Shown: positions 1,014 to 39,196 of the stretch, piece after piece | How the letters are laid out: the number at the start of each line of letters is the position of its first letter | Position numbering within the stretch: the stretch's first letter is position 1 | Source of the DNA: Desulfobacterales bacterium | GTDB taxonomy: Bacteria > Desulfobacterota > Desulfobacteria > Desulfobacterales > SURF-7 | Length of the DNA: 49,977 bases | Assembly (NCBI GenBank): GCA_030145525.1 | Contig: JAQYVL010000037.1 | Coordinates: forward strand, 1-49,977 | Direction of reading: 5' to 3' | Made by a program: the position numbers and the translations under genes | The notes under the pieces: model-generated | The model's input: only the letters and a program-made list of their open reading frames with translations | Told to the model about the DNA's origin: nothing | Databases searched by the model: none

Positions 1014-2540
1014 ATGACCGATAGAAAAATAATCCGAAGGGGATTTGTCAAGAGTGTTGCAGCCATAGGGTTTTCTCTTTTCATCGTCAGTATGATTTCT
1101 GCCTGTTCAAAAAAAGATCCCTCTGGATACTCAAAGGATAAAAGGGAAACGATAGGCCTTGTTGAGGGCTATTCCGAGGCCCTCCCGAATATTGTCATTA
1201 TTAATGCCGATGATCTGGGATATGGAGATCTGGGATGCTATGGAAGCAGGGCGATCCAGACCCCCCGCATCAACAGCCTTTCGGATCAGGGAGTCCGGTT
1301 TACGGATTTTCATGCCTGTGATTCCGTATGCACGCCATCGAGGGCGGGATTGCTTACGGGGAGATACCCCAAAAGAATGCAGCTGGATATGCCGCTGCTT
1401 TCGGAAAACATGCCTTTCGGAAAAAGCATGCTGGTGAGATTAGGTTTTTTAATGGGGAAACTGGGTGTCACGGATATTGCAACCAAAGGCGGAGCTACAG
1501 GCATTCCAAAACATGAAATAACCCTTGCCGAGGCACTGAAAAAAAGAAATTATCGAACAGGCATGGTCGGCAAGTGGCACCTGGGTGACTATTCGGGCAA
1601 TCCGGAGCACAATCCAAGAAATCACGGTTTCGATTATTATTTCGGTGTTCCGCACAGTAATGATATCCATCCTTTTCCTCTTTACCGAAATGAAACGGAA
1701 CTGGAACCGGAGGTAACCGACCAGTCCAAACTTACCGGTCTATATACGGATGAAGCGATAAACTTTATAAAAACATCAAAGGGAGACCCCTTCTTTCTCT
1801 ATTTTGCCCATACTTTTCCCCACCGGCCTCTTTACGCGTCAAAAGATTTTAAAAATAGATCGGAAGGGGGTATCTTTGGAGACACAGTAGAAGAGATCGA
1901 CTGGAGCGTTGGCAGGATACTGGATACCCTGAAGGAAAATAATCTTGACAGCAACACGCTGGTTATATTCACCAGCGACAATGGCCCGTGGTATCAGGGA
2001 AGCCCCGGAGAATTCAGGGGGAGAAAAGGGCAAAGCTATGAAGGAGGCCACAGAGTGCCATTCATAGCGCGCTGGAAAGGGCATATCAAACCCGGAAGCA
2101 TCTGCACCGAATCTGCAATGAACATCGATTTATTCCCTACATGCCTGGCATCGGCAGGTCTTACCCTGCCTGATGACCGGATTATTGACGGCATGGATAT
2201 CAGGGACCTCCTTATACAGGAAAACAGCAAGACACCTCATGACTATTTCTTTTTTTATCATCACGGAGAACTGGAAGGAATAAGGACAGAGAACTGGAAG
2301 TATTTTCGTTCCATCAATCATTACAGCTGGCCGATGCCGGTAAATAAGAAATTTGGGAGTTTAATCAGTTATACAAACGGCCCCCTGCCATTGCTGTTTA
2401 ATCTGGGAATTGATCCCGGTGAATCTTACAATGTCATTGAAAAGTATCCTGGTAAAGCCAGAGAGCTTGAGAACGTAATGGCAAGGTGGGAAAAAGAAAT
2501 GACGGATAATCCGGGCGGCTGGATAAAGAGGGCGAATTAA
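1014..2540 (+). CDS. Cys-type sulfatase (arylsulfatase family), lipoprotein signal
   Basis: The formylglycine motif C-T-P-S-R is present (CTPSRAGLLTGRYP), along with NADDLGYGDLGCYG and SDNGPW motifs. The N-terminus carries a lipobox (MISAC). An AAGGAGGA RBS precedes the ATG. Confidence 0.9.
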   Translation: MTDRKIIRRGFVKSVAAIGFSLFIVSMISACSKKDPSGYSKDKRETIGLVEGYSEALPNIVIINADDLGYGDLGCYGSRAIQTPRINSLSDQGVRFTDFHACDSVCTPSRAGLLTGRYPKRMQLDMPLLSENMPFGKSMLVRLGFLMGKLGVTDIATKGGATGIPKHEITLAEALKKRNYRTGMVGKWHLGDYSGNPEHNPRNHGFDYYFGVPHSNDIHPFPLYRNETELEPEVTDQSKLTGLYTDEAINFIKTSKGDPFFLYFAHTFPHRPLYASKDFKNRSEGGIFGDTVEEIDWSVGRILDTLKENNLDSNTLVIFTSDNGPWYQGSPGEFRGRKGQSYEGGHRVPFIARWKGHIKPGSICTESAMNIDLFPTCLASAGLTLPDDRIIDGMDIRDLLIQENSKTPHDYFFFYHHGELEGIRTENWKYFRSINHYSWPMPVNKKFGSLISYTNGPLPLLFNLGIDPGESYNVIEKYPGKARELENVMARWEKEMTDNPGGWIKRAN

Positions 2541-9858: not shown

Positions 9859-12800
9859 ATGACCAAGAAAGTCATTGGATCTGTTATGGTTTTAGGCGGA
9901 GGTATTGCAGGAATGCAGTCCGCTATAGACCTGGCCAACTCAGGATACTATGTTTATCTCGTCGAAAAATCATCAGCCGTTGGAGGGCTGATGTCCCAGC
10001 TTGATAAGACCTTCCCAACCAACGACTGTGCCATGTGAATTATATCACCCAAACTGGTCGAGGTCGGCCGGCACATAAATATTGAACTATTGACAAACAG
10101 CGAGCTTGAAAGTCTTGAGGGCGGACCCGGTAATTTCAAGGTCCGTGTGAGACAGGAACCGCGCTTTATTGATCTGTCCAAATGCACAAGCTGTGGAGAG
10201 TGTGATAAAGTATGCCCTGTTGAACTCCCAAATGAATATGATGAAGGACTTTCAACCAAAAGAGCTGCTTTTAAAAAATATGCCCAGGCAATCCCCGGTG
10301 CTTTTGCAATAGATAAAACGGATAATGCGCCATGCCGTTTGGCGTGCCCTGCCGGACTTAATGTTCAGGGCTACGTTCAAATGGTGAAGCAGGAAAAATA
10401 TGAAGAGGCGCTGCAAATTATTATGGAAGACCTTCCTCTTCCGGGAGTTCTCGGACGCATCTGTCCGCATGGCTGTGAAGATGCCTGCCGCCGATGCGAG
10501 GTGGAGGAGCCGGTCGCAATCTGTAAATTGAAACGACTTGCTGCCGACCGGTTTGATCCAAGGGATGTCAAAATTGATTGTCAGCCTGAAAAGGAGGGCA
10601 AAGTTGCGATTATCGGTTCCGGTCCGGCAGGCCTTTCTGCTGCCTATCATCTTGCACGTAAAGGGATCCAATCGACAATTTTTGAATCTTTGCCAAAGCC
10701 CGGCGGGATGCTGAGAGTGGGGATCCCGGATCATCGACTTCCCCCCGAAGTTCTTGACAGGGAGATAGAGGTCATAACAAACCTCGGTGTTGAGATAAAG
10801 ACGAATACTCCCCTCGGTCCTGAGTTGGCGATTGATGACCTTTTGGGGGATGGATACAAAGCGGTATATCTGGCAATGGGGGCTCATAAAGGTATTGAGC
10901 TTGGCATACCGGGGGAAAAAGCGGAAGGCATCCGCCAGGGAGTTGATTTTTTAAAAGAGGTAAACCTGACCGGAAAGGCAGAGGTTGGGAAAAAAGTTGC
11001 GATAATAGGCGGCGGAAATGTGGCGATTGATGTTTCCCGATCTGCAATAAGGCTTGGTGCAGAAGAAGTTACGATAATTTATCGCCGAACGAGAGCAGAA
11101 ATGCCTGCATGGGAAGAAGAAATCCATGCCGCTGAGGAAGAAGGTGTCGGAATAACTTATCTGTCGGCCCCCCAGGAAGTTCTTGTTCAAGAAGGCAGAG
11201 TCAGAGGCCTTCGATGTATCCGGATGGAGTTGAGTGAACCGGATTCATCCGGCCGCAAGAGGCCTGTTCCTGTTCCCGGAAGTGAATATGATATAGAGAT
11301 TGATCAGATTATTCCTGCAATCGGCCAAAGGCCGGATTTGTCTGTGATAGAGGATGTGACCGGTCTCACTTTTTCACGTTGGGGAACGACAGAAGTGAAT
11401 GCGGTAACCTATGCCACTGAGCGAGAAGGTGTTTTTGCCGGTGGAGACCTGCAGACCGGCCCATGGGTAGCCATAGGCGCAATCGCCGCAGGTCGTGAGG
11501 CGGCGGAATCTATCGCAAGATTCATAGATGGGCTTGATATGGAAGAGGGTCGCGAGCCTGTTGTAAATGAAAGCCCTGTTTATCGTCCGATTCCCGAGGA
11601 TCAGGTTAAGCAGGCAAGAGAAAAATTACCGGAACTGCCGGTAGAAGATCGTAAAGGTAATTTTAAGGAAGTGGAACTGGGCTTTGATGATGATGCCGGG
11701 CAAAAGGAAGCGGCAAGATGCCTTAATTGCGGCTACTGCTCCGAGTGCTTGCAGTGCGTTGATGTTTGTCTGGCAGGTGCAATTGATCACAGTCAGAAAA
11801 CTGAAATGAAAGAAATAGAAGTAGGCTCGGTAATCCTTTCCGCAGGAAGCAGGCCTTATGATCCTTCCGCTTTGGATGAATTTTATCATTACAAGACAAA
11901 TCCAAATGTCCTTACCAGCCTTGAGTTTGAAAGAATTTTAAGCGCTTCAGGCCCTACAATGGGGCATCTCGTTAGACCATCTGACAATAAGGAACCCAAA
12001 AAAATTGCCTGGCTTCAGTGCGTCGGATCAAGGGATAACAATAAGTGCGGCAATGGATATTGCTCTTCAGTTTGCTGCATGTATGCCGTTAAGGATGCAA
12101 TGATAGCCAAAGAGCATTCGAAAGAAGATCTGGACTGTGTTGTCTTCAATATGGACATCCGAACATTTGGTAAAGATTATGAAAAGTATTATAATCGTGC
12201 AAAGGACAAGGAAGGCGTCCGGTTCGTAAAAGCCAGAATCCATACCATCGGTGAAATCAGGGAAACCGGTGATCTTAACATTCGGTATGTGGACGACTCA
12301 GGCGCAATCTGTGAAGAAATATTTGATATGGTTGTGCTTTCCGTGGGTCTTCAAATAGAAGAATCAACGATTCAACTGGCGAAAAAGCTTGAAATTGATC
12401 TTGATAAATACAGTTTTGCCGATACACAACCCTTCACTCCTGTTGTGACCACGAGACCCGGGATATATGCATGTGGTGCTTTACAGGGGCCAAAGGATAT
12501 TCCGAGTTCGGTTACCGAGGCAAGTGCTGCCGCTGCCGCTGCCGGAATTTGTCTTGCAGACGCACGCGGTACCTGCACAAAATCTGTTGAAATTCCCGAG
12601 GAGATGGATGTCAGCGGTGAGGAGCCAAGGATTGGTGTATTTGTATGTAACTGCGGCATAAACATAGCCGGAGTTGTTGATGTCAAAGCTGTGGAAGAAT
12701 ACGCAAAAAGTATTCCGGGAGTGGTGTTCAGTACTCAAAATCTGTTTACCTGTTCCCAGGATTCACAAGACCAGATGAAGGAAATAATCAAGGAAAATAG

Positions 12801-14292
12801 ACTTAACAGAGTAGTCGTTGCCGCATGCACTCCGAAAACTCATGAAGGAATATTCATGGACACTCTCGAGGCTTGCGGTTTGAACAAATACCTTTTTGAA
12901 ATGGCAAATATTCGCAATCAGAATTCATGGCCGCATTCTGATGAGCCTGATACGGCAACGCAAAAGGCAAAAGATCTGGTGAGGATGGCGGCTGCCAGAG
13001 CGGCGACCCTCACACCGTTACATGAAAAAAAGATTTCCGTTATAGAAAGGGCACTGGTAATCGGAGGTGGCGTTTCCGGTATGAATGCCGCGTTAAATCT
13101 GGCGGATCAAGGATTTGAAGTGGTTCTGATAGATAAAGAGGCGGAACTGGGAGGCATGGCTAAACACCTCACGGAGACAATTGAGGGTGAAAATATAAGC
13201 ATTTACCTTGAAGAGCTCATTCGAAAGACTACTTCACATCCCAGGATTCAATCTTTGACGAACTCACTTGTTGTGGGGTTTTCGGGCTTTAAGGGGAATT
13301 TCAACACCGAAATACTGGTGGGGCCCGGTATGTATGAAAGAAAGATTGAACACGGTGTGGTCATTCTTGCAACAGGTGCAAATGAATATCAGCCCAAGGA
13401 GTTTCTTTATGGAGAAGATGAAAGGGTTGTAACCCAGGTCGAGCTTTCACAACAACTTGATGAAAAAGGGGCAGAGGGCCTTGACAGGGTAATCATGATC
13501 CAGTGCGTGGGATCAAGAAATGATGAAAATCCCAACTGTTCAAGGATTTGCTGCCAGGCCGCCATAAAAAATGCACTGCACATCAAGAAGCTTCGCCCTG
13601 ATACCGAAGTATTTATTCTTTATCGAGATATTAGATCATATGGTCTTCTTGAAGATTATTATACCGAGGCCAGAAAGCTCGGGGTTATTTTTTCACGGTA
13701 TGAGGCGGATAATCCGCCTGAGGTTAAAGTTGAGGATGGAGAGCTTTTTGTTACTTTCAGGGATCATGTTCTTGGTTGTGATCTAAAGGCGAGCGCTGAT
13801 ATTCTGGCCTTAAGCGCCGGTATGATAGCGGAGGATACGGAAGAACTCGCTTCGATCGTAAAGCTTGCGCGAAATGCGGAAGGCTTTTTTATGGAAGCAC
13901 ATGTAAAGCTCAGGCCTGTAGAAATGGCTACGGAAGGAATATTTATTTGCGGCACGGCCCATAGCCCCAAACTTATTACCGAGTCAATCGCCCAGGCACA
14001 GGCTGCGGCATCAAGAGCGGTTACCTTCCTTTCACAGTCCAGTTTGACCCTGTCGGCTGTTGTTGCGGAAGTAGAGGGAGAAAAGTGTGCTTCCTGCCTT
14101 ATTTGTGTACGCTCCTGTCCTTATGGCGTACCAAAAATAAATGAGGAGGGTGTCAGTGAGATCGATGAAGCCCTTTGTCACGGGTGTGGTGTTTGTGCAG
14201 CGGAATGTCCGGCTAAAGCGATTGAGCTTCACTGGTACGAGGATGATCAGTTACTTAGCAAGGTAGAGGCTTTGCTGGAAGGGGTGTTATGA
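9859..14292 (+). CDS. hdrA: Giant HdrA-like flavoprotein (tandem HdrA modules with embedded GltD/NfnB-like NAD(P)H module), selenocysteine at TGA 10036..10038
   Basis: ORFs 9844..10038 and 10090..14292 are in the same frame and separated only by one TGA. Read-through gives [18 protein letters not shown], the conserved HdrA DCxMC motif. GxGxxG FAD sites, the VGSRD...CSxxCC motif (twice) and 4Fe-4S CxxCxxCxxxCP motifs are present. GGAGGG precedes the ATG at 9859. Confidence 0.85.
10054..10071 (+). promoter_or_regulatory. Candidate bacterial SECIS hairpin for the hdrA UGA
   Basis: CUGGUC-GAGGUC-GGCCGG forms a 6-bp stem including G-U pairs, with a 6-nt loop containing GGUC. It starts 15 nt after the UGA. 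Confidence 0.4.
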
Positions 14293-14744
14293 AGCAGGAT
14301 TTTGAACCGATTATCGTCTCGTTTTGCTGCAATTTCTGAGGGTATACGGCAGCGGACCTGGCAGGTTCGATGAGGCTTAGCTATCCTACAAGTATTAAAA
14401 TTATTCGAGTTCCATGTACCGGCAAGGTAGATGTTATCCATATTCTCAGATCCTTTGAAAAAGGAGCGGATGGAGTTTATGTGGTCGGATGTATGGAAGG
14501 AGACTGCCATTTTAATAAAGGCAATTTTAGAGCCCGAAAACGGGTGGAACAGGCTCAAAAACTGCTGGAAGATATCGGAATCGGTGGGGAACGGGTAAAG
14601 ATGTACAACCTTTCTTCGAGTGAAGCGCCGCTTTTCGTAGAATATGCCAAAGAGATGTCAGAGAAGATTCTTGAACTTGGACCCAATCCGATTAAGGAGG
14701 CAAAAAAAAGTTTACGCGGGCAAAATGAGGCTGTCTCCGGCTGA
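14289..14744 (+). CDS. mvhD: MvhD/FlpD-like [2Fe-2S] protein with selenocysteine at TGA 14337..14339
   Basis: The ATG at 14289 overlaps the hdrA stop (ATGA). The frame is continuous with ORF 14370..14744 through one TGA. The translation [27 protein letters not shown]...IIRVPCTGKVD matches the MvhD motif CCNWCxYxxADxAG, with Sec at the Cys position. Confidence 0.8.
14353..14369 (+). promoter_or_regulatory. Candidate bacterial SECIS hairpin for the mvhD UGA
   Basis: CGGACC-UGGCA-GGUUCG forms a 6-bp stem with a 5-nt loop containing GG. It starts 13 nt after the UGA. Confidence 0.4.
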
Positions 14745-14823
14745 TTCCGAGTCTTTTGTCCGGGTCACTTTTTTGAGCTTTAACCCATGAACAAGAAACC
14801 ATATTATCTGTGAAGGTGTCTTT

Positions 14824-15492
14824 ATGATTGTTGCCGAAAGAAAACCGATTGATGAAATTATTGAAAAGATAAAGGATTACAATAAAATTCTTCTTTTGGG
14901 ATGTAATGAATGTGTTACGGTTTGCGAGGCCGGTGGGAAGAAGGAAGTCGGTGTGCTCGCCTCAGCTCTTCGAATGTATTTTTTGAATAAGGGAAAAGAG
15001 ATACTTATTGATGAAATTACCCTGGAGCGGCAGTGCGATCACGAGTATCTTGAAGAAATTCGCGACAGGATCGATCAATATGATGCCGTACTTTCCCTTG
15101 CCTGTGGTGTGGGCGTGCAGTTCATGGCTGATAAATATTTGTCAACACCAGTGTATCCAGGTGTTAATACATGCTTTTTAGGTGCTACGGAGAAGAGGGG
15201 GCTGTGGACCGAGAGGTGTCAGGCCTGCGGGCAGTGTATTCTCGCAAGCACCGGCGGAATCTGTCCTATATCCCGTTGTGCCAAGCGTGTTTTAAATGGT
15301 CCGTGCGGAGGGTCAACCAATGGTAAATGTGAACTCAGTAAAGAGCTTGATTGCGCCTGGCAGTTGATCATAGATCGGTTAAAAGCGATGGACAGGCTGG
15401 ATGATTATGAAAAACTGGCGGATATAAAGGACTGGTCCTCTGATAGGGCCGGGGGACCCAGAAAAGTTGTCAGGGAGGATGTTCAGGAATGA
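14824..15492 (+). CDS. metV: MetV-like Cys-rich small subunit of methylene-THF reductase (MTHFR C-terminal-like domain)
   Basis: Cys clusters are present (GCNECVTVCEAGG; CQACGQCILASTGGICPISRCAK...GPCGG). Its stop overlaps the metF start (ATGA). The gene order matches the known hdr-mvhD-metVF clusters. Confidence 0.75.
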   Translation: MIVAERKPIDEIIEKIKDYNKILLLGCNECVTVCEAGGKKEVGVLASALRMYFLNKGKEILIDEITLERQCDHEYLEEIRDRIDQYDAVLSLACGVGVQFMADKYLSTPVYPGVNTCFLGATEKRGLWTERCQACGQCILASTGGICPISRCAKRVLNGPCGGSTNGKCELSKELDCAWQLIIDRLKAMDRLDDYEKLADIKDWSSDRAGGPRKVVREDVQE

Positions 15493-16418
15493 GCGAAAAA
15501 ACATCAAGCAAACTGGAAAGAATTCTTGCCTCAGGCAATCTTGCCGTAACATCTGAATGTGGGCCGCCCCGAGGCACTGATCCTGAAGCGATTATTGAAA
15601 AAGCAAATCTGATAAAGGATTATGTCGATGCGATTAACATAACGGATAATCAGACCTCTGTTACTCGGATGTGCAGCCTGGCAGCGTGTATCCGGCTGAA
15701 ACTTATGGGCCTGGAGCCGGTTCTTCAAATGGTGACCAGAGATCGAAACAGAATTGCTTTGCAAAGCGATATTCTTGGCGCGGCTTCCTTTGATATTAAT
15801 AACATGCTATGCCTTTCAGGTGACCACCAGAGCTTTGGTGACTGTGCAGCAGGGCAGAACGTTCATGACCTTGACTCAATGCAGCTCCTTCAACTGGTGA
15901 GGAAAATGCGGGATGAAGGGAAATTTCTGGGTGGAGATGAGATTAAACGTCCTCCAAAAATGTTTGTCGGTGCTGCGGCCAACCCTTTTGCAGATCCATT
16001 CGAAATTCGGGTACCCCGCCTTGCAAAAAAGGTCGCTGCCGGTGCTGAATTTATTCAGACTCAATGTATTTATAATCTGGATAAGTTTGAGAAATGGATG
16101 GAAGGAGTCAGAGAGCGGGGTTTGCACGAGAAAGTCCATATCCTCGCGGGCGTTACCCCGTTTAAATCAGCCGGTATGGCACGATATATGAAAAACAGAG
16201 TGCCTGGTATGGATGTCCCTGATGATGTGGTCAAGAGGATGGCGGACACGCCAAAGGAAAAACAGGCGGAAGAAGGAATCAACATCTGTGTGGAATCGAT
16301 CCAGCGTCTTAAAGAAGTTGAGGGAGTTCATGGATTTCATGTGATGGCCATTGAATGGGAAGAGAAAGTCCCGGGAATAATAGAAAGGACAGGGCTCTAC
16401 CCCAGACCCGAAGTATAG
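15489..16418 (+). CDS. metF: Methylenetetrahydrofolate reductase
   Basis: The 309-aa protein has the MTHFR pattern (ECGPPRG, INITDNQ, RDRNRIALQSDILGA, FVGAAANP, GAEFIQTQ). It is translationally coupled to metV. Confidence 0.88.
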   Translation: MSEKTSSKLERILASGNLAVTSECGPPRGTDPEAIIEKANLIKDYVDAINITDNQTSVTRMCSLAACIRLKLMGLEPVLQMVTRDRNRIALQSDILGAASFDINNMLCLSGDHQSFGDCAAGQNVHDLDSMQLLQLVRKMRDEGKFLGGDEIKRPPKMFVGAAANPFADPFEIRVPRLAKKVAAGAEFIQTQCIYNLDKFEKWMEGVRERGLHEKVHILAGVTPFKSAGMARYMKNRVPGMDVPDDVVKRMADTPKEKQAEEGINICVESIQRLKEVEGVHGFHVMAIEWEEKVPGIIERTGLYPRPEV

Positions 16419-25844: not shown

Positions 25845-25920
25845 TGGGGCGTCGTCAAGTGGTAAAGACACAGGATTTTGATTCCTGCATTCGGAGGTTC
25901 GAATCCTCCCGCCCCAGCCA
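25845..25920 (+). tRNA. tRNA-Gln (anticodon UUG)
   Basis: A cloverleaf is readable by eye. The acceptor stem is UGGGGCG/CGCCCCA, the anticodon stem is CAGGA/UCCUG with loop UUUUGAU, and the T-arm is GGAGG-UUCGAAU-CCUCC. The discriminator is G, CCA is encoded, and the sequence closely resembles E. coli tRNA-Gln. Confidence 0.93.
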
Positions 25921-28297: not shown

Positions 28298-28327
28298 TTT
28301 TAAGCTAACAGTTGAATGGAGGGAAAC

Positions 28328-30340
28328 ATGGATTTTATATTGGAAAATATCCCATTGACGTGTGCACTCGTCGGAGTTGTCGGGATTATTTTTTCTCTGA
28401 TCCTTGCGGGAATCGTCAAAAGTGCTCCGGCAGGAAATGAGAAAATGCAGGAAATCGCTGGTGCAATTCAGGAAGGTGCAATTGCATATTTGAATCGTCA
28501 GCTGAAAAGTATGGCAGCAGCCGGTATCGTGATTTTTATCGTTATCTTCTGGACCATGGGCAGCATTACCGCAATCGGATTCGCTATCGGCGCCATTGCT
28601 TCTTTTTGTGCCGGTTATATCGGAATGCGGGTTTCCGTTCTTGCCAATGTCAGAACTGCCGAGGCTGCAAGAAAAGGCATGGCAGCAGGTCTTTCAATGG
28701 CATTCAGGGGCGGATCGGTTACCGGTATGATCGTTGCCGGTCTGGCCCTTACTTCTGTGGCCGGATACTACAATTACACACAGGATGTTATTTCTCTAGT
28801 TGCTCTCGGTTTCGGCGGCAGCTTGATTTCAATCTTTGCGCGTCTTGGCGGCGGTATCTTCACCAAGGGCGCTGATGTTGGCGCGGACCTTGTCGGTAAG
28901 GTTGAAGCTGGGATCCCCGAAGATGACCCTCGTAATCCTGCCACAATTGCGGACAACGTTGGAGACAATGTTGGTGACTGCGCCGGTATGGCCGCAGACC
29001 TTTTTGAAACCTATGCGATTACCGCGGTTGCTGCGATGCTTCTCGGCCATCTGCTTTTTCCCAAAAATGAAATGGCTGTTCTGTTTCCATTGATTTTGGG
29101 CGCGATTTCGATTATCGCATCCATCATTGCCGTTTTCTTCGTTCGCCTTGGAAGAAGCGAGTACATTATGGGCGCTCTTTATAAGGGAATGTTCGGTGCG
29201 GCGATCATTGCCGGTGTGGCCTTTTACTATGCAGCACAGAAATTCATAGCTGACGTGCCCGGACTCAATACAATGAACATATACTACTGCACACTGATCG
29301 GTCTTGTTCTGACCGTGGTTATTGTTATCATCACAGAATATTACACGGGTATCTATAAACCGGTTAAAGATATCGCAGAGGCTTCCACAACTGGGCACGG
29401 AACAAACATCATTGCCGGTCTTGCCGTAAGTATGCAGGCGACTGCTGCGCCGGTTATAGCGATCTGCATTTCCATTGCACTTGCCTATCATTTTTCAGGC
29501 CTTTACGGCATTGCCATGGCTGCCATGTCTATGCTTTCCATGACAGGTATGGTTATCGCCATCGATGCTTACGGCCCGATCACGGATAACGCAGGCGGTA
29601 TAGCTGAAATGGCGGGAATGGATGAAAGCGTTCGTGCGATAACCGATCCGCTTGATGCTGTCGGCAACACAACCAAAGCTGTAACCAAGGGTTATGCCAT
29701 TGGCTCTGCCGCTCTTGCCGCTCTTGTTCTTTTTGCTTGCTATGTTATGGAGTTTCAGCTTCATGGAGGCGAGGGGGAAGCAATTAAATTTGATCTTTCC
29801 GATGTTGACGTAATCATCGGTCTTTTTATCGGAGGTCTGCTGCCCTACCTGTTTGCATCAATTGCCATGAAAGCTGTTGGCAATGCCGGTAGCGCGGTTG
29901 TTGACGAAGTACGCCGTCAATTCCGTGAAATTCCGGGACTTATGGAAGGAACCGCAAAGCCCGATTACGCTGCATGCGTTGACATCGTTACCCAGTTCGC
30001 TCTCCGGGAAATGATCGTTCCGGCTCTGCTGCCGGTTGCCGCACCTATCATTGTCGGCCTTCTTCTTGGAAAGGTTGCTCTTGGCGGTCTTCTGATCGGA
30101 AGTATTGTAACCGGTATCTTTGTCGCCCTTTCCATGACAACCGGTGGTGCTGCATGGGATAATGCGAAGAAATACATCGAAGACGGTAACCTGGGCGGGA
30201 AGGGCAGTGATGCTCATAAAGCTGCCGTTACAGGAGACACTGTAGGCGATCCATACAAGGATACCGCAGGTCCGGCGATTAACCCGATGATCAAAATTCT
30301 GAACGTTGTTGCTCTGCTTATGGTGCCTTTCCTTATGTAA
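28328..30340 (+). CDS. hppA: Membrane-bound H+-translocating pyrophosphatase, K+-independent-type signature
   Basis: [25 protein letters not shown] and [14 protein letters not shown] are present. The GGAGGG RBS favours the ATG at 28328. Confidence 0.93.
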
Positions 30341-32212: not shown

Positions 32213-34300
32213 TTATGCTGCATTCTTATCCTTATTGTAGCAGATCCGACAGCAATTCATACAGCGCGAAGACTCCCGCAACGAATCCTCCTCCTGAAGG
32301 ACAAGGTCCGCTTCATCAAAAGTTTTGATTCGTTCTTCAACAGGAAGTTCAGGCATTTCGGCTCGTTTTTGTTTAATAATATCATCAACCGAATCAAAAA
32401 GCGTTCCTTCAATATTCTCTTTAAACAGAGAGTTTGGTACCGGTTCAACAGGCCGGCAGGCGAGGTATTGATGGATTGATCTGGCTGCTCTTCTCCCGCC
32501 GCCGATGCCTTCAACCACGAGGGACGCTCCTGTGGCTGAATCTCCACCTGTAAAAATATAGGGTATATTGGTCTGGAGTGTTTCCGGGTTGGCTGAATCG
32601 ATTGTGTCCCATCGGGTCGTAACAAGTTCTGCCATTCGTTTTCCATTTTCCTTGAATGAAACATCAGGCCCCTGGCCGATGGCAGTTACAAGCATATCAA
32701 TGTCAAGGGCAGTTTCTGATCCTTCCACCGGTACCGGTCGGCGTCTGCCGCTGGCATCCGGTTCACCAAGCTCCATTTTCAGGTATTCAAGGCCTGTAAC
32801 CTTGCCGTCTTCATCCCCGATAACCTTATTGGGCGCCGCAAGAAAATTGAATTTCACACCTTCATGCTCTGCCGCTTCAATTTCAACAAGATTTGCCGGC
32901 ATTTCATTTCGGGTTCTGCGGTATACGATGGATACTTCTTCTGCGCCGAGTCGAATAAGAGTCCGAACACAGTCAATTGCAGTATTTCCACCACCGATCA
33001 CAGCACATTTTTTTCCGATGGGGATAATTAGATTGCTGTCGCCCTGCTGCGTGGTAGAAAATTTAGTCAGAAAATCGATTCCTGTATGACAACCTTCAAG
33101 ATCCTCCCCCTCAATTCTGAGACTGTAATCTTTCCATGCGCCGATCCCTAAAAAAATGGCATCATAGCCGGATGCAATCAATGACCCGAGATCGAAATCA
33201 TATCCGAATTTGACGTTTGTTTTGGCTTCTATGCCGAGTTTGAGAATACCCTCAATTTCCCATTCAAGAACCTCTTTGGGCAGCCGGTATTCCGGGATGC
33301 CGTACCGGATCATTCCGCCCAGTTTCGGCATCATCTCAAAGATGGTAACTGAATGTCCCAGCCGTCTAAGAAAAAAGGCACAGCTAAGGCCGGCCGGGCC
33401 CCCTCCGATTATCGCAACCTTTTTTCCGGTATCCGGAGCACATGGAATCGGCAAACGTTTTCCAGAGTCCATTTCATAGTCAGCGACAAAACGTTTTAAC
33501 TGGTTTATAGAAACCGGTTCATCCTCAATCCCCCGCCTGCATTTGTCCTCGCAAGGATGGGGGCATACACGCCCGCAGGAAAGAAGCAGGGGGTTCCGTT
33601 CACGGATCGTGCTCACGGCGCCCGTGTAGTCACCGTTTTTGATCTGCTGGATATATCTGGGAATATCAATTTCCGCGGGGCAGGTCTGCCTGCATGGGGC
33701 AAGCGCCGCATCAACCTGGTTAAAACTGAGAAGCCTTTCCGACATGGTTCTGATTTTGATGATATTTTTAGGGCAGACTTCTCTGCATGCACCGCATCCG
33801 ACACATTTGGATTCATCAACCTCAGGGTAACCGTTTGGCCCGAGGGCAATCGCATCAAATTTGCATGCGTCTATACAATCACCAAAGCCGATACACCCGA
33901 TACTGCAGACTCGTTTACCTCCATATAGTGCCGCCATTGCCCGGCATGAGGTAACACCCATGTAATGGTATTTATCATCCGCCCTGTTTCCGCCAAGGCA
34001 TTCATTTTGAGAAAGAATTGGTTCCGCAGTTCCAGGATCAAGACCCATAACAGCGGCAATTCCTGTTGCTGCCTCTGCACCCGCAACAATGCACACACTT
34101 GGAGGGGCCTCACCATTGACCACAGCTTCTGATGCAGCAGCGCATCCTGTATATCCGCATCCTCCACAGTTTGCTCCGGCTGTCAGACCTTCAATAATCG
34201 CTATTCTGGGATCTTCATAAACATAAAAAACTTTTGAGGCAATACTTAGAATGGCCCCGCATACCGTACCAAGGAACAGCATAAAAAGGAGAGCTGTCAC
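32213..34300 (-). CDS. rnfB: RnfB fused to a GltD/NfnB-like FAD/NAD(P)H oxidoreductase module
   Basis: The N-terminus has a TM helix plus GANCGGCGYTGCAAASEAV and two ferredoxin CxxCxxCxxxCP motifs, as in RnfB. The following about 470 aa carry CRQTCPAEIDIPRY, GRVCPHPCEDKCRR, VAIIGGGPAGLSCA, AVIGGGNTAIDC and TGGD, as in the glutamate synthase small subunit / NfnB. Confidence 0.85.
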   Translation of the reverse strand: MTALLFMLFLGTVCGAILSIASKVFYVYEDPRIAIIEGLTAGANCGGCGYTGCAAASEAVVNGEAPPSVCIVAGAEAATGIAAVMGLDPGTAEPILSQNECLGGNRADDKYHYMGVTSCRAMAALYGGKRVCSIGCIGFGDCIDACKFDAIALGPNGYPEVDESKCVGCGACREVCPKNIIKIRTMSERLLSFNQVDAALAPCRQTCPAEIDIPRYIQQIKNGDYTGAVSTIRERNPLLLSCGRVCPHPCEDKCRRGIEDEPVSINQLKRFVADYEMDSGKRLPIPCAPDTGKKVAIIGGGPAGLSCAFFLRRLGHSVTIFEMMPKLGGMIRYGIPEYRLPKEVLEWEIEGILKLGIEAKTNVKFGYDFDLGSLIASGYDAIFLGIGAWKDYSLRIEGEDLEGCHTGIDFLTKFSTTQQGDSNLIIPIGKKCAVIGGGNTAIDCVRTLIRLGAEEVSIVYRRTRNEMPANLVEIEAAEHEGVKFNFLAAPNKVIGDEDGKVTGLEYLKMELGEPDASGRRRPVPVEGSETALDIDMLVTAIGQGPDVSFKENGKRMAELVTTRWDTIDSANPETLQTNIPYIFTGGDSATGASLVVEGIGGGRRAARSIHQYLACRPVEPVPNSLFKENIEGTLFDSVDDIIKQKRAEMPELPVEERIKTFDEADLVLQEEDSLRESSRCMNCCRICYNKDKNAA

Positions 34301-34370
34301 GGTTTCCTCCTAACTTCCTGAAATACACATTAATAATAAAATAATGAAAGCGATCAAATAAATATTAAAA

Positions 34371-34425
34371 AATCGGGATATACACCATATTTCAATATTC
34401 CAAATAAGTAATGCATATCCCGATT
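34371..34425 (-). promoter_or_regulatory. Perfect 11-bp inverted repeat (AATCGGGATAT ... ATATCCCGATT) in the 166-bp AT-rich rnfA-rnfB gap
   Basis: The repeat is seen directly. All other rnf junctions are 14 nt or less or overlap. Confidence 0.4.
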
Positions 34426-34466
34426 GATTTGGTACCTTCCTGCATCATCCAAAAAGTCTAACCTTG

Positions 34467-35039
34467 CTATACCATCCCCTTGAAGGCGTAAAACGCAAGC
34501 GCAATCATACCGGCGGTTACAAGGCCGATTGAAGTGTCCTGGAGAGGTTTGGGTACCCTGGCGAGCAGAATTCTTTCCCGCACACCGGCGAAAAGGATAA
34601 GGGCCAAACCAAATCCAACAGCATAGGCAAATGAGGCGACCAGTGATTGCATAAACGTAAATTCTTTGTCAATATTCAGAATACATACACCCATAACTGC
34701 ACAGTTCGTTGTGATCAGAGGGAGAAAAATTCCCAGACCGGCATAGAGTGCCGGAATTGATTTTTTAAGAAACATCTCTACAAACTGGACAAGAGAGGCA
34801 ATTACGACGATGAAAGCGATTGTCCTTAAATAAACAAGATTGAACTCGACGAGAACATATGTAAAGATCAACCAGGTAATTGTGCCTGCCAACACAAGAA
34901 CAAATATGACGGCCATAGACATTCCCACAGCGGTCTCCATCTTTTTGGAAGTTCCCAGAAAAGGGCAATTTCCAAGAAACTGGGCAAGAAGGATGTTGTT
35001 TACAAAAATACATGCAATAATAAGTTCGAAATAGCCCAT
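34467..35039 (-). CDS. rnfA: Rnf complex subunit A
   Basis: The 190-aa polytopic membrane protein begins ...ACIFVNNILLAQFLGNCPFLG, the RnfA/NqrE pattern, and sits in the expected position in the rnf cluster. Confidence 0.9.
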   Translation of the reverse strand: MGYFELIIACIFVNNILLAQFLGNCPFLGTSKKMETAVGMSMAVIFVLVLAGTITWLIFTYVLVEFNLVYLRTIAFIVVIASLVQFVEMFLKKSIPALYAGLGIFLPLITTNCAVMGVCILNIDKEFTFMQSLVASFAYAVGFGLALILFAGVRERILLARVPKPLQDTSIGLVTAGMIALAFYAFKGMV

Positions 35040-35053
35040 TTTATTTTCTCCCG

Positions 35054-35665
35054 TTAATCACCAATGGCGTTTATGGCACAAAGCATCAATCCAAGTCCGA
35101 TGAAGGCGCCAGGGGCCTGAACCATGAATTCGAAAGGTTGAAAAGAAGGGAAAACTGATGTAAGGTTGTAACCAAGATCACCCCATATTGTCAGAGACCC
35201 TTTTCCTAATATTTCTCTAAATGCTCCCAGAGCACCTAAAGAAAGTGTGAAGCCAATTCCGATACCCATTCCGTCGGCCGTAGATGAGGCAATTCCGTTT
35301 TTTGATGCAAATGCTTCCGCACGTCCCAGAACGATACAGTTTACGACGATAAGCGGGATAAATACGCCCAGCTTGAGAAACAGCGGGTATGCATAGGCCT
35401 GCAGGAGATGCTCAACAACAATAACAAAGGAAGCAATTATAATAATAAAGCAGGCAATTCTGACCTTTGGCGGAATAATATTTCGCAAAAGCGATACGAG
35501 AATGTTGGAGCACGCAAGGACAAACGTGGTGGCTACCCCCATTCCAAGCCCGTTTTCCATGGATGTCGTTACACCTAGTACAGGGCAAAGGCCCAGTACC
35601 AGCCTGAACGGAGGGAGTTCTTCCCACAGACCTTTTGTAAATTCCTGAACGATAGATTTCGCCAT
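35054..35665 (-). CDS. rnfE: Rnf complex subunit E
   Basis: The 203-aa membrane protein has LVLGLCPVLGVTT and VVNCIVLGRAEAFA, the RnfE/NqrD pattern. Confidence 0.9.
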   Translation of the reverse strand: MAKSIVQEFTKGLWEELPPFRLVLGLCPVLGVTTSMENGLGMGVATTFVLACSNILVSLLRNIIPPKVRIACFIIIIASFVIVVEHLLQAYAYPLFLKLGVFIPLIVVNCIVLGRAEAFASKNGIASSTADGMGIGIGFTLSLGALGAFREILGKGSLTIWGDLGYNLTSVFPSFQPFEFMVQAPGAFIGLGLMLCAINAIGD

Positions 35666-35675
35666 ACTGTTCTCC

Positions 35676-36269
35676 CTAATTTTCGAAAGCTTTTATTTGT
35701 TCAGCAAGCTGAGGTTTTAATCTTTTATAAGAGGCCAGCGACTTTGCGACAGCGTCACAAACAGCGCGGGACGTAATTGTGGCTCCGCTTATTGCATTGA
35801 TACCGCCTCCGTCATTGGTAACTTTAACATTTTCATCCACTGAAAGGCCTTTGAATTGCAATGAAAAGCTGGGGTCTTCCTTGGATTTTGCTCCCAGGCC
35901 GGGTGTTTCGCTATGGGTCGTTACCGCAGCGCCGATCAATTTGTCGTCGTCAAGGTTAATGCCGATCATGACGCCGATGTCACCGCCGTATCCCTTCCCG
36001 AATCCTTCAAAGGCAACCGTATTCGCTTTTCCGTTGAATTTGCCCACAAAAAAACTTAGTTCCGTTTCCCCGTCGACAATTTTAAAACGATCGACAATGG
36101 GATCGTTCGCAGAACCCTCCAGAATGGTTTTTATCGCCGGCCCCTTAACAAACTTGAGCTGCTGGTTTTCAATCTGAGCAGCAGTGCCATCATGAATGGC
36201 CGCAAGGAGTCCACCTGAAACAGAGCTAAGGATTGTGAGAACAACAACCATTTTGATCATTTCATTCAT
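35676..36269 (-). CDS. rnfG: Rnf complex subunit G (FMN-binding)
   Basis: It has an N-terminal anchor and an FMN_bind domain with the flavinylation motif AISGATITS. Confidence 0.85.
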   Translation of the reverse strand: MNEMIKMVVVLTILSSVSGGLLAAIHDGTAAQIENQQLKFVKGPAIKTILEGSANDPIVDRFKIVDGETELSFFVGKFNGKANTVAFEGFGKGYGGDIGVMIGINLDDDKLIGAAVTTHSETPGLGAKSKEDPSFSLQFKGLSVDENVKVTNDGGGINAISGATITSRAVCDAVAKSLASYKRLKPQLAEQIKAFEN

Positions 36270-37234
36270 TTTCCAACAACCTTTCCAAGCGCTTTGGGCC
36301 TGATTTTATCCAAAAGTGGATTGACAATATTCATCAGCAGTATCGCAAGAACAACGCCATCCACATAGGCACCTATATTTCTTATCAGAATCGTCATGAC
36401 CCCGCAGCCGGTCCCATAGATGAGCATGGGGATAAAATTTACCGGTGAGGATGAATCTTCGGTTGCAAGATAAAAAGCTCCGATGAGTGTATAGCCGGTA
36501 AAGAGGTGAAAAAGCGGGCCGGCATATTTACTCTCTTCGCCGAACATGTTGAAAAGAAGCGCTGTGATAAAAATACCGGCGATGAAGGAGGCAGATATTT
36601 CCCAGCGAATAAAGCCGCGGGCGATCAGGTAGATTCCGCCGATAATAATAGCAATGCCGCAGGTAGAGCCGATCCCTCCAATTTGTCTTCCCATGAGAAG
36701 ATCGACAGATGAAAACGATGAGACGGAATCCGGCCCAAACGCCTTCAGCGCGGCCAGCGGATAGATCATTGTATGATCAAAATCATATGCTAAAAGGGCT
36801 TCATCAAAATCGAACATACCTTTCCAGGACAGCGAAAGAATGGCGATGGAAACCAGTACCGGATTAAACGGATTGCCGCCAAGTCCTCCATAGATCTGCT
36901 TTCCGATGACAACCGCAACCAATGTTCCCACAAGAACTCCCCACCAGGGTGTCGTCGCAGGTACCATCATCGCAAAGAGGAGCCCGATCATGGCCGCGTT
37001 GCCGTCACCGATGGAAACAGGCCGTTTACTTATATGATTGATAATAAGTTCCCAGATCATTGCAGTTGCGATGGAAAAACAGACGACCGCAACAGCGGGT
37101 CCGCCGTATTGCAGGAAACCCGGGATAACAGACAGCATGGCTGCGAGCATGATATGGTAGTTTTTTGTTGAAATCGAGCTCCCGTCTTGCCAGAAAGGGG
37201 CATGTGAAACAATAAATTTTTTCTGGTTAAACAT
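36266..37234 (-). CDS. rnfD: Rnf complex subunit D
   Basis: It has the NqrB/RnfD pattern (GGLGGNPFNP, TEDSSSP, DGVVLAILLMN). The start at 37234 (MFNQKK) has GGAGG 6 nt upstream and overlaps the rnfC end. Confidence 0.85.
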   Translation of the reverse strand: MFNQKKFIVSHAPFWQDGSSISTKNYHIMLAAMLSVIPGFLQYGGPAVAVVCFSIATAMIWELIINHISKRPVSIGDGNAAMIGLLFAMMVPATTPWWGVLVGTLVAVVIGKQIYGGLGGNPFNPVLVSIAILSLSWKGMFDFDEALLAYDFDHTMIYPLAALKAFGPDSVSSFSSVDLLMGRQIGGIGSTCGIAIIIGGIYLIARGFIRWEISASFIAGIFITALLFNMFGEESKYAGPLFHLFTGYTLIGAFYLATEDSSSPVNFIPMLIYGTGCGVMTILIRNIGAYVDGVVLAILLMNIVNPLLDKIRPKALGKVVGK

Positions 37235-38510
37235 TCTCCGCCTCCGCTGCATGAATTCTGGCAAGCTCGTATTTTGCAAGCCTTATATATTGGAAAATTG
37301 GAATTTTGGCGGTACAGACATAACTGCAAAGACCGCATTCAATGCATGAGAAAAGATCATAGCTGTCTGCAGCCTCCTCGTATTGGCTAACTTCAAGGAA
37401 GCGAACGAGCATGTTTGCAGGTACTTTTGCAGGACAGATTCGTACACACTCTCCGCAGTTGATGCATGCATTGTCGGAAATAAAAGGTATAACATTTCTA
37501 TCCTGCACAATCACCGCATCCGTATCGTTGCATATCGGATGGTCTTCTGTATAAACGGAAGATCCTGTCATGGGCCCACCTATGATGATCCGATCGCTGT
37601 CTTCCGCAGAAATGCTGAGCGCCGAAAAGATATCCTTCAGAGGTGTTCCTAGTATAGTTGATATCAGTTTTTTAAAGCCGTGTTTGTCAATAACGGTAAT
37701 AATTTTTTTGGTTGGTATTTCGTTTGTAGTATATGCTGTCCCAAGTGAAGCAACTGCTTCGGCACCTATAAGCAGTACGCCAAGCTCTTCAAACGAACTT
37801 CCGGCCGGGATTTCTTTCCCGAGTATCTCTTTTAAAACCAAATGGGGAAGTGCTTTCGGGTAGATTGAACTGACAGTCTTGACAGCAGCCCCGGTTGACG
37901 ACGCTTCCAGGGACAGTGCTTCCGGAACTGCAATTACGAAATTTTCGATGCCTGTTATTTCTTTCAGGATCTGAATTCCCTTTTTGATGGCACTCGTTGA
38001 GGTCTTGACAATATACTGCTTTGTGTTGACAAGCAGATCCGTATCCATACCGTTAATTACAATCGTATCGATTTTCCGGTCAGATTCGGAAAAAAGAGCT
38101 GATGGAAGAACACCCGGCAGACCTGCAAGGAAATCTTTTGTATTTTGAAGCGAGGGTGTCTTTGAAATCTCATTGAACCGGCCGTCTTTTTCTTCTTTAT
38201 CCTTTCGATTGATGATTATGGAGGTCATTTGGACTCCGAAATCGCCGGTGCAGGGTGAGATAGAGGTAATGGTTCCTGTGACGGGCGATATTACGTAATC
38301 CTCACTCTCCTTTAATATGGTCAACTTCTGGCCTGTTTTTACTTCATCACCCGGCTGTAAAGCAACTTGATCCTTTTTATCAAAAACGGTGTTTGAAAAA
38401 AGCTGAACGGTTTCTGATGCGGATATTTCCCGGGGCTCAGGTGCAGCTGCGCTGACAATGTCATATTCAAGCCTGGGTTTCTGTAAACCAAAGAATGATC
38501 TTTTTATCAT
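37227..38510 (-). CDS. rnfC: Rnf complex subunit C-like, divergent (canonical GGAGFP and ECEP motifs absent)
   Basis: It has an RnfC N-terminal barrel region, IIGGPMTG and two 4Fe-4S motifs (CINCGECVRICP, CIECGLCSYVCT). The expected GLGGAGFPT reads GLPGVLPSA, and NAAECEPY reads NGMDTDLL. Confidence 0.8.
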   Translation of the reverse strand: MIKRSFFGLQKPRLEYDIVSAAAPEPREISASETVQLFSNTVFDKKDQVALQPGDEVKTGQKLTILKESEDYVISPVTGTITSISPCTGDFGVQMTSIIINRKDKEEKDGRFNEISKTPSLQNTKDFLAGLPGVLPSALFSESDRKIDTIVINGMDTDLLVNTKQYIVKTSTSAIKKGIQILKEITGIENFVIAVPEALSLEASSTGAAVKTVSSIYPKALPHLVLKEILGKEIPAGSSFEELGVLLIGAEAVASLGTAYTTNEIPTKKIITVIDKHGFKKLISTILGTPLKDIFSALSISAEDSDRIIIGGPMTGSSVYTEDHPICNDTDAVIVQDRNVIPFISDNACINCGECVRICPAKVPANMLVRFLEVSQYEEAADSYDLFSCIECGLCSYVCTAKIPIFQYIRLAKYELARIHAAEAENV

Positions 38511-38522
38511 GATACCTTCCCT

Positions 38523-39095
38523 TTACATTACGTGGCAGGATGAACAATCAACAGGACCTGAACCGTATTCTTTATGACAGTCAATGCACTGCCTGTGGAA
38601 CGCGTCGGATCTTTTATGAAAATTCATGGTTTTTTCCTGGCCTTCAATTTCATCCGGTTCGTGACAGTCGCTGCAAACCTCTGGAGCGGATCCGTCTTCT
38701 ACGGGTTTATGGCATTCACTGCAGGCATGAAAATCAGATTCATCAGCATCTGTTGGATGATGGTCTTCAATCTCCCCTGCAGCTTCATGGCACTCAAGGC
38801 AGTTTTCGGGAACTGTTTTCGGCTCTTCGGCTTTATGGCATTCGCCGCAGGCCTTAAAGTCCGCTTCATCATCTTCATTGTGGTGATGGCAGTCAATACA
38901 CGCGACACTGTATCCCGCATCTATTCTGTGAACTTTATGGGTAAATAATACTTTTCCTGCAGATGTTTTAAATATTTTTCTAACAGGGTCTTTAGGGCTT
39001 TCTACAGGAAAAAAGGCCGCATAGCATAGTCCGCCCACAAGAAACAGAATAACCGCCAGACAATAAGCCAGCTTCAGTTCTTTACTAGAAGTCAT
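38523..39095 (-). CDS. Membrane-anchored multiheme cytochrome c (seven CxxCH motifs)
   Basis: The seven motifs are CIDCH, CGECH, CLECH, CSECH, CSDCH, CIDCH and CSSCH. It has one N-terminal hydrophobic helix. The start at M20 (39095) is preferred, and the ORF-track start at 39152 is possible. Confidence 0.85.
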   Translation of the reverse strand: MTSSKELKLAYCLAVILFLVGGLCYAAFFPVESPKDPVRKIFKTSAGKVLFTHKVHRIDAGYSVACIDCHHHNEDDEADFKACGECHKAEEPKTVPENCLECHEAAGEIEDHHPTDADESDFHACSECHKPVEDGSAPEVCSDCHEPDEIEGQEKTMNFHKRSDAFHRQCIDCHKEYGSGPVDCSSCHVM

Positions 39096-39196
39096 TGCGA
39101 ATTCATTCCTTTCAGCAAATTGATCCATATCAGGAAACAACAAAACAAACATGAACGGTTAACATAATCGATATTTTCATGCAACCCATTTTTTAT

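Follow-up and report, generated by a model that had tools for sequence, protein, structure and literature searches.

The closest described relatives of the system analysed here are the Rnf2 complexes of the Desulfobacterales, a Desulfobacula toluolica Tol2-type Rnf that is traced to Woehlbrand (2013) on that organism, as cited in Doerries et al. (2016, PMC5109826). The latter authors give the RnfB of this type as about 700 amino acids (aa) long with nicotinamide adenine dinucleotide (NAD) binding sites, and report that Desulfococcus multivorans forms both Rnf2 and an Acetobacterium woodii-type Rnf1. A 2025 Science Advances paper (PMC11887813) assigns Rnf2 to the core genome of the Desulfobacteraceae, reports its abundant, constitutive formation in the six strains examined by proteomics and, in its supplement, lists an RnfB of 200 + 500 residues, an RnfC without a flavin mononucleotide (FMN) domain and a cytochrome c3 gene; the other subunits are called "very similar" to canonical ones, and ferredoxin, perhaps also NADH, is proposed to reduce the cytochrome, which in turn would pass electrons to Qrc. 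The DNA studied here, 49,977 nucleotides from a Desulfobacterales bacterium (GenBank assembly GCA_030145525.1, contig JAQYVL010000037.1, positions 1 to 49,977 of the forward strand; "the window" below), carries a gene cluster, cytochrome c-rnfCDGEAB, that by its sequence is a member of Rnf2, and its architecture is thus a known one. All four features of the type are present: a large fused RnfB (about 700 aa, with an RnfB N-terminus and a pyridine-nucleotide oxidoreductase domain of about 500 aa), an FMN-domain-less RnfC without a working Complex1_51K, a cytochrome c3-type gene, and relatedness to the Desulfobacteraceae (Tol2 itself was compared by description). The gene order is also the same, and apart from a 7-haem cytochrome in the window's clade as against 4-5 haems there is no essential difference. 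A preliminary description of the locus, made from the sequence alone, knew of no biochemical account of this arrangement; that holds for enzymology, but the architecture has been published as Rnf2, and since the Rnf2 papers describe the same traits, the system counts as already characterised at the genomic and proteomic, not the biochemical, level. What is added here is the absence of threonine or serine at the RnfD flavinylation position in 105 homologues, the YRR motif of RnfB, the kinship of its fused module with Bfu-type NfnABC/Stn enzymes, and a set of variant loci.

The most likely function of the complex, we infer, is that of an ion-pumping ferredoxin/NADPH:cytochrome c oxidoreductase. 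In the sequence the entry wire, the RnfA/E [2Fe-2S] ligands and the RnfG flavinylation site are intact and an NADP(H)/flavin adenine dinucleotide (FAD) entry has been added to RnfB, while the return leg of the U-shaped path that electrons take in canonical Rnf is dismantled, RnfD being without its FMN threonine and RnfC without its FMN/NADH site. The canonical complexes of known structure (A. woodii 9eri, Clostridium tetanomorphum 7zc6 and Azotobacter vinelandii 8ahx) share with the window the six homologous subunits, the RnfA/E cysteines, the RnfG site, the proximal RnfB clusters and the 2x[4Fe-4S] domain of RnfC. They differ in that the window RnfC has no FMN/NADH motifs (GxGGAGFPT, ECEPY) and the window RnfD no FMN threonine ([ST]xAT-PL), and in that the window has an NADP(H)/FAD module in place of the distal RnfB domains, plus a cytochrome c. 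The preliminary suggestion that the pyridine-nucleotide site had moved to the RnfB side, or that a second one had been added there, is borne out at the level of sequence by the RnfB module and the lost RnfC motifs; the novelty that it implied does not survive the two Rnf2 papers (PMC5109826, PMC11887813).

The cluster consists of seven co-directional open reading frames (ORFs) on the minus strand, all assigned by Pfam and NCBIfam in the order that had been proposed, and for every core subunit the Rnf models outscore the Nqr models:

38523-39152, minus strand: cytochrome c, 209 aa; Pfam Cytochrom_CIII, Cytochrome_C7 and c3_2.
37227-38510, minus strand: rnfC, 427 aa; RnfC-like fold with a degenerate FMN/NADH site and an intact 2x[4Fe-4S] domain.
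36266-37279, minus strand: rnfD, 337 aa from a TTG start; Pfam NQR2_RnfD_RnfE, 293.6 bits.
35676-36269, minus strand: rnfG, 197 aa; periplasmic FMN-binding subunit, Pfam FMN_bind.
35054-35665, minus strand: rnfE, 203 aa; Pfam Rnf-Nqr.
34467-35039, minus strand: rnfA, 190 aa; Pfam Rnf-Nqr.
32213-34300, minus strand: rnfB, 695 aa, fused to an NfnL/NfnB/GltD-like module.

The rnfB gene is one uninterrupted 695-aa frame with a GTG start and an AGGAGG ribosome-binding site upstream. As the preliminary description had it, a normal RnfB N-terminus is followed by a part resembling the glutamate synthase beta/NfnB family; PF04060, Fer4, Fer4_20, Pyr_redox_2 and both dinucleotide motifs were all recovered. 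Its parts are as follows:

33731..34300, minus strand: RnfB part of the fusion, residues 1-190, with a transmembrane helix, a CGGCGYTGC Fe-S domain and a 2x[4Fe-4S] ferredoxin domain (PF04060, Fer4).
32213..33718, minus strand: NfnL/NfnB/GltD-like module, residues 195-695, with a Fer4_20 2x[4Fe-4S] domain, an FAD fold, an NADP(H) fold and a permuted C-terminal segment.
33377-33412, minus strand: motif of the FAD fold, IIGGGPAGL.
32891-33001, minus strand: motif of the NADP(H) fold with YRR, VIGGGNTAID...VYRRTRNEMPA.
32213-32360, minus strand: C-terminal segment, residues ~645-695 (RAEMPELPVEERIKTFDE...SSRCMNCCRIC), homologous to the N-terminal 45 residues of NfnB/NfnL.

In the first part the sequence GANCGGCGYTGC occupies residues 42-53 (PF04060) after the N-terminal hydrophobic helix, the ferredoxin domain covers residues 135-182, and residues 6-197 match the solved chains 7zc6_B (E 1.6e-44) and 9eri_B (E 2.7e-42). 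In the second, Fer4_20 spans residues 201-279 and Pyr_redox_2 residues 293-597, and the module matches NCBIfam PRK12771 at 505.9 bits. By sequence, this NfnL/GltD-type module stands where the distal ferredoxin domains of RnfB would be, and its clusters continue the RnfB Fe-S wire.

The closest relatives of the module with solved structures are the NfnL-like domain of Caldicellulosiruptor NfnA (9bov_A, E 1e-128) and archaeal Nfn-Bfu (9n5u_A, 1e-121), followed by Sporomusa StnC (8oh5_C, 3e-116), NfnB/NfnL of NfnSL (5jca_L, 1e-97; 4ylf_B), GltD and DPD; E values across 9bov_A, 9n5u_A, 8oh5_C, 5jca_L and 4ylf_B run from 1e-128 to 1e-96. It shares Fer4_20, the FAD, the NADP(H) fold and YRR with the NfnL-like input domains of Bfu-type NfnABC/StnABC (9bov, 9n5u, 8oh5), with NfnSL (5jca, 4ylf) and with Cac_0764-type FNOR, but is fused to a membrane-anchored RnfB rather than to [2Fe-2S] + Fdh-like domains, and is not paired with NfnA. 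About 168-171 of 171 homologues keep the motifs for FAD and NADP(H), YRR and every cluster cysteine; the two YRR arginines, R461 and R462, are present in 169 and 168 of them respectively. The YRR motif is common to the NADPH-dependent NfnB, StnC and GltD and, together with what is known of the family, points to NADPH rather than NADH as the nucleotide used. In NfnABC, NADPH binds beside the FAD of the NfnL-like part, from which single electrons enter the Fe-S chain, and bifurcation takes place at another site of the enzyme. The module may also dock ferredoxin, since stand-alone NfnB-like proteins catalyse ferredoxin:NADP+ oxidoreduction.

The C-terminal segment of RnfB deserves comment. In NfnA and StnC the segment that is N-terminal in NfnB sits at the C-terminus, and the cluster-ligand segment of RnfB appears to be circularly permuted in the same way as in these Bfu-type enzymes, because residues ~645-687 align to the NfnB N-terminus and fall within the strong 9bov_A, 9n5u_A and 8oh5_C alignments; taken by itself the match of these residues to the NfnB N-terminus is weak (domain i-Evalue 1.2 for 5jca_L and 40 for 4ylf_B). 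Cysteines C680, C683 and C687 of the segment are invariant in the 171 homologues. Bifurcating NfnB proteins of the NfnSL type are recognised by nfnA encoded upstream, a lengthened N-terminus and Arg333 (Pyrococcus furiosus NfnI-B numbering), a residue reported to be unique to NfnB proteins and to have a hypothesised role there (PMC12221290). The window RnfB shows none of these: the ORF list of the window has no nfnA gene next to rnfB, the segment with which NfnB begins is found permuted at the C-terminal end, and Asn takes the place of Arg333.

RnfC is the subunit in which the canonical NADH site should lie. Three features of the window protein matter here:

38097..38126, minus strand: RnfC residues 129-138, AGLPGVLPSA, replacing the FMN-phosphate loop GxGGAGFPT.
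38025..38057, minus strand: RnfC residues 152-162, INGMDTDLLVN, replacing NAAECEPY.
37311..37466, minus strand: RnfC residues 349-400, with the ligands of two [4Fe-4S] clusters in two CxxCxxCxxxC(P) motifs, which 95/96 and 98/98 homologues keep intact.

Window RnfC aligns with the RnfC chains of the PDB at E values of 7e-34 to 2.5e-29. In HMMER alignments to three solved chains (7zc6_C, 8ahx_C and 9eri_C) AGLPGVLPSA faces GMGGAxFPT and GMDTDLL faces ECEPY, and a MAFFT alignment places the window motifs at the positions of GLGGAGFPT and NAAECEPYIT in Escherichia coli RsxC, whose sequence bears out the preliminary quotation of it. The motifs of an Nqo1/51-kDa-like FMN/NADH site are thus missing, as had been claimed, and GGPMTG and all eight Fe-S cysteines are retained, likewise as claimed. 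Canonical motif 1 occurs in 0/84 and motif 2 in 0/86 members of the clade. An RnfC with its FMN/NADH residues conserved at shifted positions was considered and rejected on the three alignments to solved structures and the clade-wide alignment. The protein scores 193.8 bits against TIGR01945, under the cut-off of 245.95, matches Pfam Complex1_51K marginally (32.0 bits, cut-off 31.2), and is also matched by NqrA models (102 bits).

The second loss is in RnfD, which aligns well with the RnfD chains of the PDB (E 2e-46) and has an alternative ATG start at Met16. It concerns one residue, listed here together with the flavinylation site of RnfG:

36761..36763, minus strand: RnfD Tyr173 (HTMIYPLA), at the position of the threonine that is covalently flavinylated with FMN in canonical RnfD/NqrB.
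35778-35780, minus strand: RnfG Thr164 (SGAT), aligned to A. woodii Thr185.

Tyr173 aligns with the threonine of A. woodii TTATPL (Thr156) and of E. coli SQATPL; in the A. woodii structure RnfD T156 carries FMN. The preliminary reading of IYPL at the RnfD position and of a retained SGAT in RnfG was therefore correct on both counts. Among 105 homologues the RnfD position is Tyr in 86, Ala in 11, Asp in 4, Phe in 2, and His and Asn in one each; Thr or Ser is found in 0/105. In an RnfD search of 1.84 billion representatives, the approximately 35 closest 50%-identity representatives are without DxxTxAT, and the motif is the rule from about rank 36. No mention of the threonine loss was found in the Rnf2 papers. 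A Vibrio cholerae NqrB chain (9ud3_B), unlike the wild-type chains, has a tyrosine at exactly the Tyr173 position and is presumably an engineered FMN-less variant.

RnfG carries [STAG]GA[TS] in 91/91 homologues, and the window protein scores 247.8 bits against NCBIfam RnfG_DVU2794, over its cut-off of 205. RnfE has Cys27 (LGLCP) and Cys110 (VNCIVLG), which with Cys25 (GNCPF) and Cys113 (TNCAVMG) of RnfA make up the ligands of the intramembrane [2Fe-2S] cluster; RnfA matches TIGR01943 at 242.7 bits (cut-off 229.3). The cytochrome is a membrane-anchored multihaem protein of the c3/c7 family with 7 CxxCH motifs, whose true start may be Met20 and whose gene is separated by 12 bp from rnfC downstream. 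A gene for a cytochrome with 3-8 haems stands immediately before rnfC in nearly all Rnf2 loci; the window's sub-clade has 7 CxxCH motifs, whereas Desulfobacula and most others have 4-5.

A protein search over 5.8 billion proteins, with homologues counted as 90%-identity clusters, found the fused RnfB in more than 120 clusters, each full length (685-704 aa), 72-100% identical and of the same Pfam composition, from NCBI, JGI, ENA and Logan assemblies, some of them on megabase-sized contigs. In a one-genome-per-species set 28 loci have it, all in the Desulfobacterales; they include Desulfosudis oleivorans, Desulfocicer, Desulfobacula and Desulfobacter postgatei metagenome-assembled genomes (MAGs). 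The window RnfB is 84% identical to that of a Desulfosudis oleivorans MAG and 65-68% identical to those of Desulfobacula and Desulfobacter postgatei MAGs, all in loci that share its synteny. Three loci, L016, L017 and L020, depart from the order cytochrome-rnfCDGEAB in having the fused rnfB upstream of the cytochrome gene; otherwise the order is conserved, and synteny and motif states agree across about 100 independent loci. An artefact of assembly or annotation (a missed stop or a frameshift between the two RnfB parts) was looked for and rejected: the fusion is a single ORF, and its full-length clusters and independent loci come from dozens of genomes of different projects. Identity to the window across the clade is highest in the NfnL-like module of RnfB (Fer4_20 80-82%, FAD/NADP(H) part 72-76%), which is the best-conserved part of the fusion (72-82%); it is about 65% in the N-terminal part of RnfB, 67% in the Fe-S domain of RnfC and 42% in its former FMN domain.

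Co-occurrence of the traits was surveyed in the 28 RnfB-anchored loci and in 80 RnfD-anchored metagenome loci, the latter being independent of RnfB type. The survey had been suggested in the preliminary description, and it found fused RnfB and degenerate RnfC together throughout the clade (the 0/84 and 0/86 counts above). The RnfD-anchored scan yielded close relatives only (59-90% identity); distant lineages were found via 50%-identity representatives and the contigs that encode them. Four loci, L056 (6846-12785), L060, L064 and L111, have a 4-haem cytochrome, a degenerate RnfC and a Tyr-RnfD, together with an ordinary polyferredoxin RnfB of about 270 aa; this short rnfB is upstream or divergent, genes for ApbE, Usp and RseC are nearby, and no GltD-like gene was found in the four neighbourhoods. 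Because these short-RnfB loci have both losses, the RnfC and RnfD losses travel together and the fusion is not strictly required for them. Divergent fused RnfB proteins, 36-47% identical, occur in five loci (L057, L059, L062, L078 and L079). In the three of them aligned at full length, L057 (12835-14916), L062 (3301-5388) and L079 (4874-7180), 36-40% identical to the window protein, YRR is lost in 3/3; L057 and L079 have a degenerate second GxGxxG (e.g. IINDEVEGLD, ASKLRV), which L062 keeps (ILGGGKAS), and the FAD motif and Fe-S cysteines remain in all three. Three remoter lineages also have an RnfD that lacks the threonine. In L119 the RnfB is fused, the RnfC motifs are degenerate and ApbE is encoded as well. 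L122 combines a short RnfB and RseC with a 4-haem cytochrome and a 507-aa protein in which RnfD and RnfG are fused, beside pyruvate:ferredoxin oxidoreductase. The L123 locus encodes a cytochrome with 8 haems, a fused RnfB with CLE for YRR, a second cytochrome and a NiFe-hydrogenase small subunit.

We think it probable, on balance, that in the window's Rnf2 ferredoxin or NADPH electrons enter at RnfB and flow by way of RnfA/E and RnfG to cytochrome c, with ions pumped on the way. Electrons from reduced ferredoxin and/or NADPH would enter the fused RnfB and cross RnfA/E to the RnfG FMN, driving Na+/H+ export as in canonical Rnf; from there they would leave for the co-encoded periplasmic multihaem cytochrome c and go on to Qrc and menaquinone and hence to sulfate reduction, possibly by a reversible path. 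In A. woodii, Na+ is released as the electron passes from the RnfA/E cluster to FMN-G, and all that the later steps do is bring it back to the cytoplasm. A periplasmic exit is supported by the RnfG SGAT (91/91), by the position of the cytochrome gene next to rnfC, and by the short-RnfB variants, which keep the cytochrome together with the degenerate RnfC and the Tyr-RnfD. A cytochrome c3 to Qrc route has likewise been proposed by the Rabus group (PMC11887813). A parallel by description is the Rnf-MmcA system of Methanosarcina acetivorans, a ferredoxin:methanophenazine route with a cytochrome c gene directly upstream of rnfCDGEAB, in which RnfG-FMN is the proposed cytochrome donor and RnfC has clusters and makes no use of NAD(P). 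In function the window complex would be an Nqr-like or Rnf-MmcA-like solution on an Rnf scaffold.

Several observations weigh against this assignment. The cytoplasmic RnfC/RnfD half is probably still doing something, because the eight Fe-S cysteines of RnfC are almost invariant across the clade and the riboflavin ligand positions are retained in the window RnfD (A. woodii N123 and D249 correspond to N139 and E274). The RnfG FMN might enter the vacant pocket of RnfD, so that electrons could still pass to RnfC; such pocket-dipping by an RnfG-type FMN has been suggested for Thr-less Nqr/Rnf-like complexes. On the input side the specificity for NADPH over NADH is read from a single motif, and the divergent RnfB sub-branch exists without the NADP(H) motif. 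On the output side no cytochrome gene adjoins the cluster in L119, and the cluster cytochrome was detected in only one D. multivorans condition (PMC5109826), such detection being rare in proteomes, where its scarcity has been ascribed to detectability (PMC11887813). Finally, we found no enzymology or structure of Rnf2 in the literature, and no activity, cofactor or structural data for any member.

The retained RnfD riboflavin ligands and the cytochrome-less L119 would fit an Nqr-like NAD(P)H (or ferredoxin):menaquinone oxidoreductase, which we consider unlikely: electrons would run from RnfB through RnfG and the RnfD riboflavin to menaquinone, RnfC would be an NqrA-like lid with accessory clusters, and the cytochrome a side branch. 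Na+-NQR (NqrA-F) is built to a similar plan: the subunit by which electrons enter, of NAD(P)H/FAD/Fe-S type, is likewise anchored in the membrane and comes from the last gene of the cluster, and NqrA, its homologue of RnfC, has lost the nucleotide/flavin site; the 102-bit match of NqrA models to the window RnfC agrees with this parallel. The entry module is of NfnL/GltD type on an RnfB scaffold, however, rather than an FNR-type NqrF with [2Fe-2S] and FAD/NADH, the two RnfC clusters are kept whereas NqrA is cofactor-free, and NqrB keeps the FMN threonine that the window RnfD has lost. In Nqr a counterpart of FMN-D is needed to reach the riboflavin and the quinone. In A. woodii the flavin held by this threonine (FMN-B/D) lies between FMN-G and riboflavin, so that its absence argues against this path.

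Strict conservation of the RnfC clusters, now without their covering FMN, and the NADP(H) motifs of the fused module could also be taken to mean that the two sites have been exchanged, which would make the complex an ion-coupled ferredoxin:NADP+ oxidoreductase, an NADP-specific Rnf with NADP(H) at RnfB and ferredoxin or another one-electron carrier at the exposed RnfC clusters. This seems decidedly unlikely. In the A. woodii coupling geometry flow from RnfB to RnfC exports ions; the NADPH to ferredoxin direction is endergonic and the reverse flow dissipates the gradient, and because of these thermodynamics we judge ferredoxin at RnfC unlikely. The FMN-D link is absent here as well, and the conserved cytochrome c gene would be left unexplained.

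The module is homologous to bifurcating NfnB/NfnL, RnfB and RnfC are adjacent in the A. woodii complex, and the conserved RnfC clusters are without an obvious partner; a membrane-coupled bifurcation or confurcation can therefore be imagined, in which the RnfB FAD would feed both an RnfA/E-RnfG-cytochrome c branch and a branch through the RnfC clusters and riboflavin, RnfC standing to RnfB as NfnA/NfnS does to NfnB. We give this little credence, as in the closest homologues (Bfu-type NfnA, StnC) the FAD simply takes in electrons from NADPH and is not where bifurcation occurs, Asn replaces Arg333 (P. furiosus NfnI-B), and the nearest RnfB and RnfC clusters of A. woodii are more than 30 Angstrom apart. 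A canonical ferredoxin:NAD+ Rnf, with FMN/NADH bound by shifted RnfC residues or with an artefactual fusion, is scarcely credible, for apart from the marginal Complex1_51K match the degenerate residues fall on the FMN/NADH motifs in three alignments to solved RnfC, neither motif is present in any clade member, and a single-ORF fusion in more than 120 clusters, from dozens of genomes of different projects, refutes the artefact at the level of sequence.

Elsewhere in the window, about 1.9 kb from rnfB and on the opposite strand, after CarD and RluD-like genes, lies a gene for a membrane-integral ion-pumping pyrophosphatase, HppA (H_PPase, 876 bits), an ion-motive enzyme typical of Desulfobacteraceae energy metabolism. 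A second NfnB/GltD-like module (Fer4_20 + Pyr_redox_2) is found in a 1400-aa ORF, which has an FAD/Rossmann region at about 986-1057 and a C-terminal 2x[4Fe-4S] domain and is followed by a 222-aa ORF and a methylenetetrahydrofolate reductase (MetF) gene; it looks like an electron-transfer protein, possibly a bifurcating one, that is associated with MetF in the reverse Wood-Ljungdahl pathway. An Rfam scan of the window gave no match besides one tRNA. These and other features are:

28316-30340, plus strand: HppA.
10090-16418, plus strand: region of the 1400-aa ORF.
3895-5655, minus strand: hybrid-cluster protein (Prismane family).
1014-2540, plus strand: sulfatase.
25845-25917, plus strand: tRNA.

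If the orphaned RnfC clusters and the RnfD riboflavin did form a second branch fed by the RnfB FAD, with bifurcation or confurcation coupled to ion translocation, NADPH electrons could for example be split between the periplasmic cytochrome/menaquinone route and a second acceptor, and such a two-branch complex would be a new class of membrane-bound bifurcating enzyme; we hold this to be very improbable. A less radical reading, also unproven, would make the complex an Nqr-like ion pump of independent origin, an NADPH/ferredoxin:cytochrome c oxidoreductase acting as the main entry to the respiratory chain in marine sulfate reducers. Desulfobacteraceae account for a large share of seabed carbon oxidation. 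Rnf2 is the leading candidate for moving NAD(P)H and ferredoxin electrons to the menaquinone and cytochrome pool in the complete oxidisers. Mechanistic work on Rnf and Nqr appears to have bypassed it, and a 2025 RNF/NQR review makes no mention of Desulfo-, sulfate or NADPH. With its NADH end and FMN-D gone and an NADP(H) entry gained, Rnf2 is a natural experiment that could test where ion pumping is coupled; it shows how an Nqr-like design can arise from Rnf, and it is a worthwhile and tractable biochemical target.

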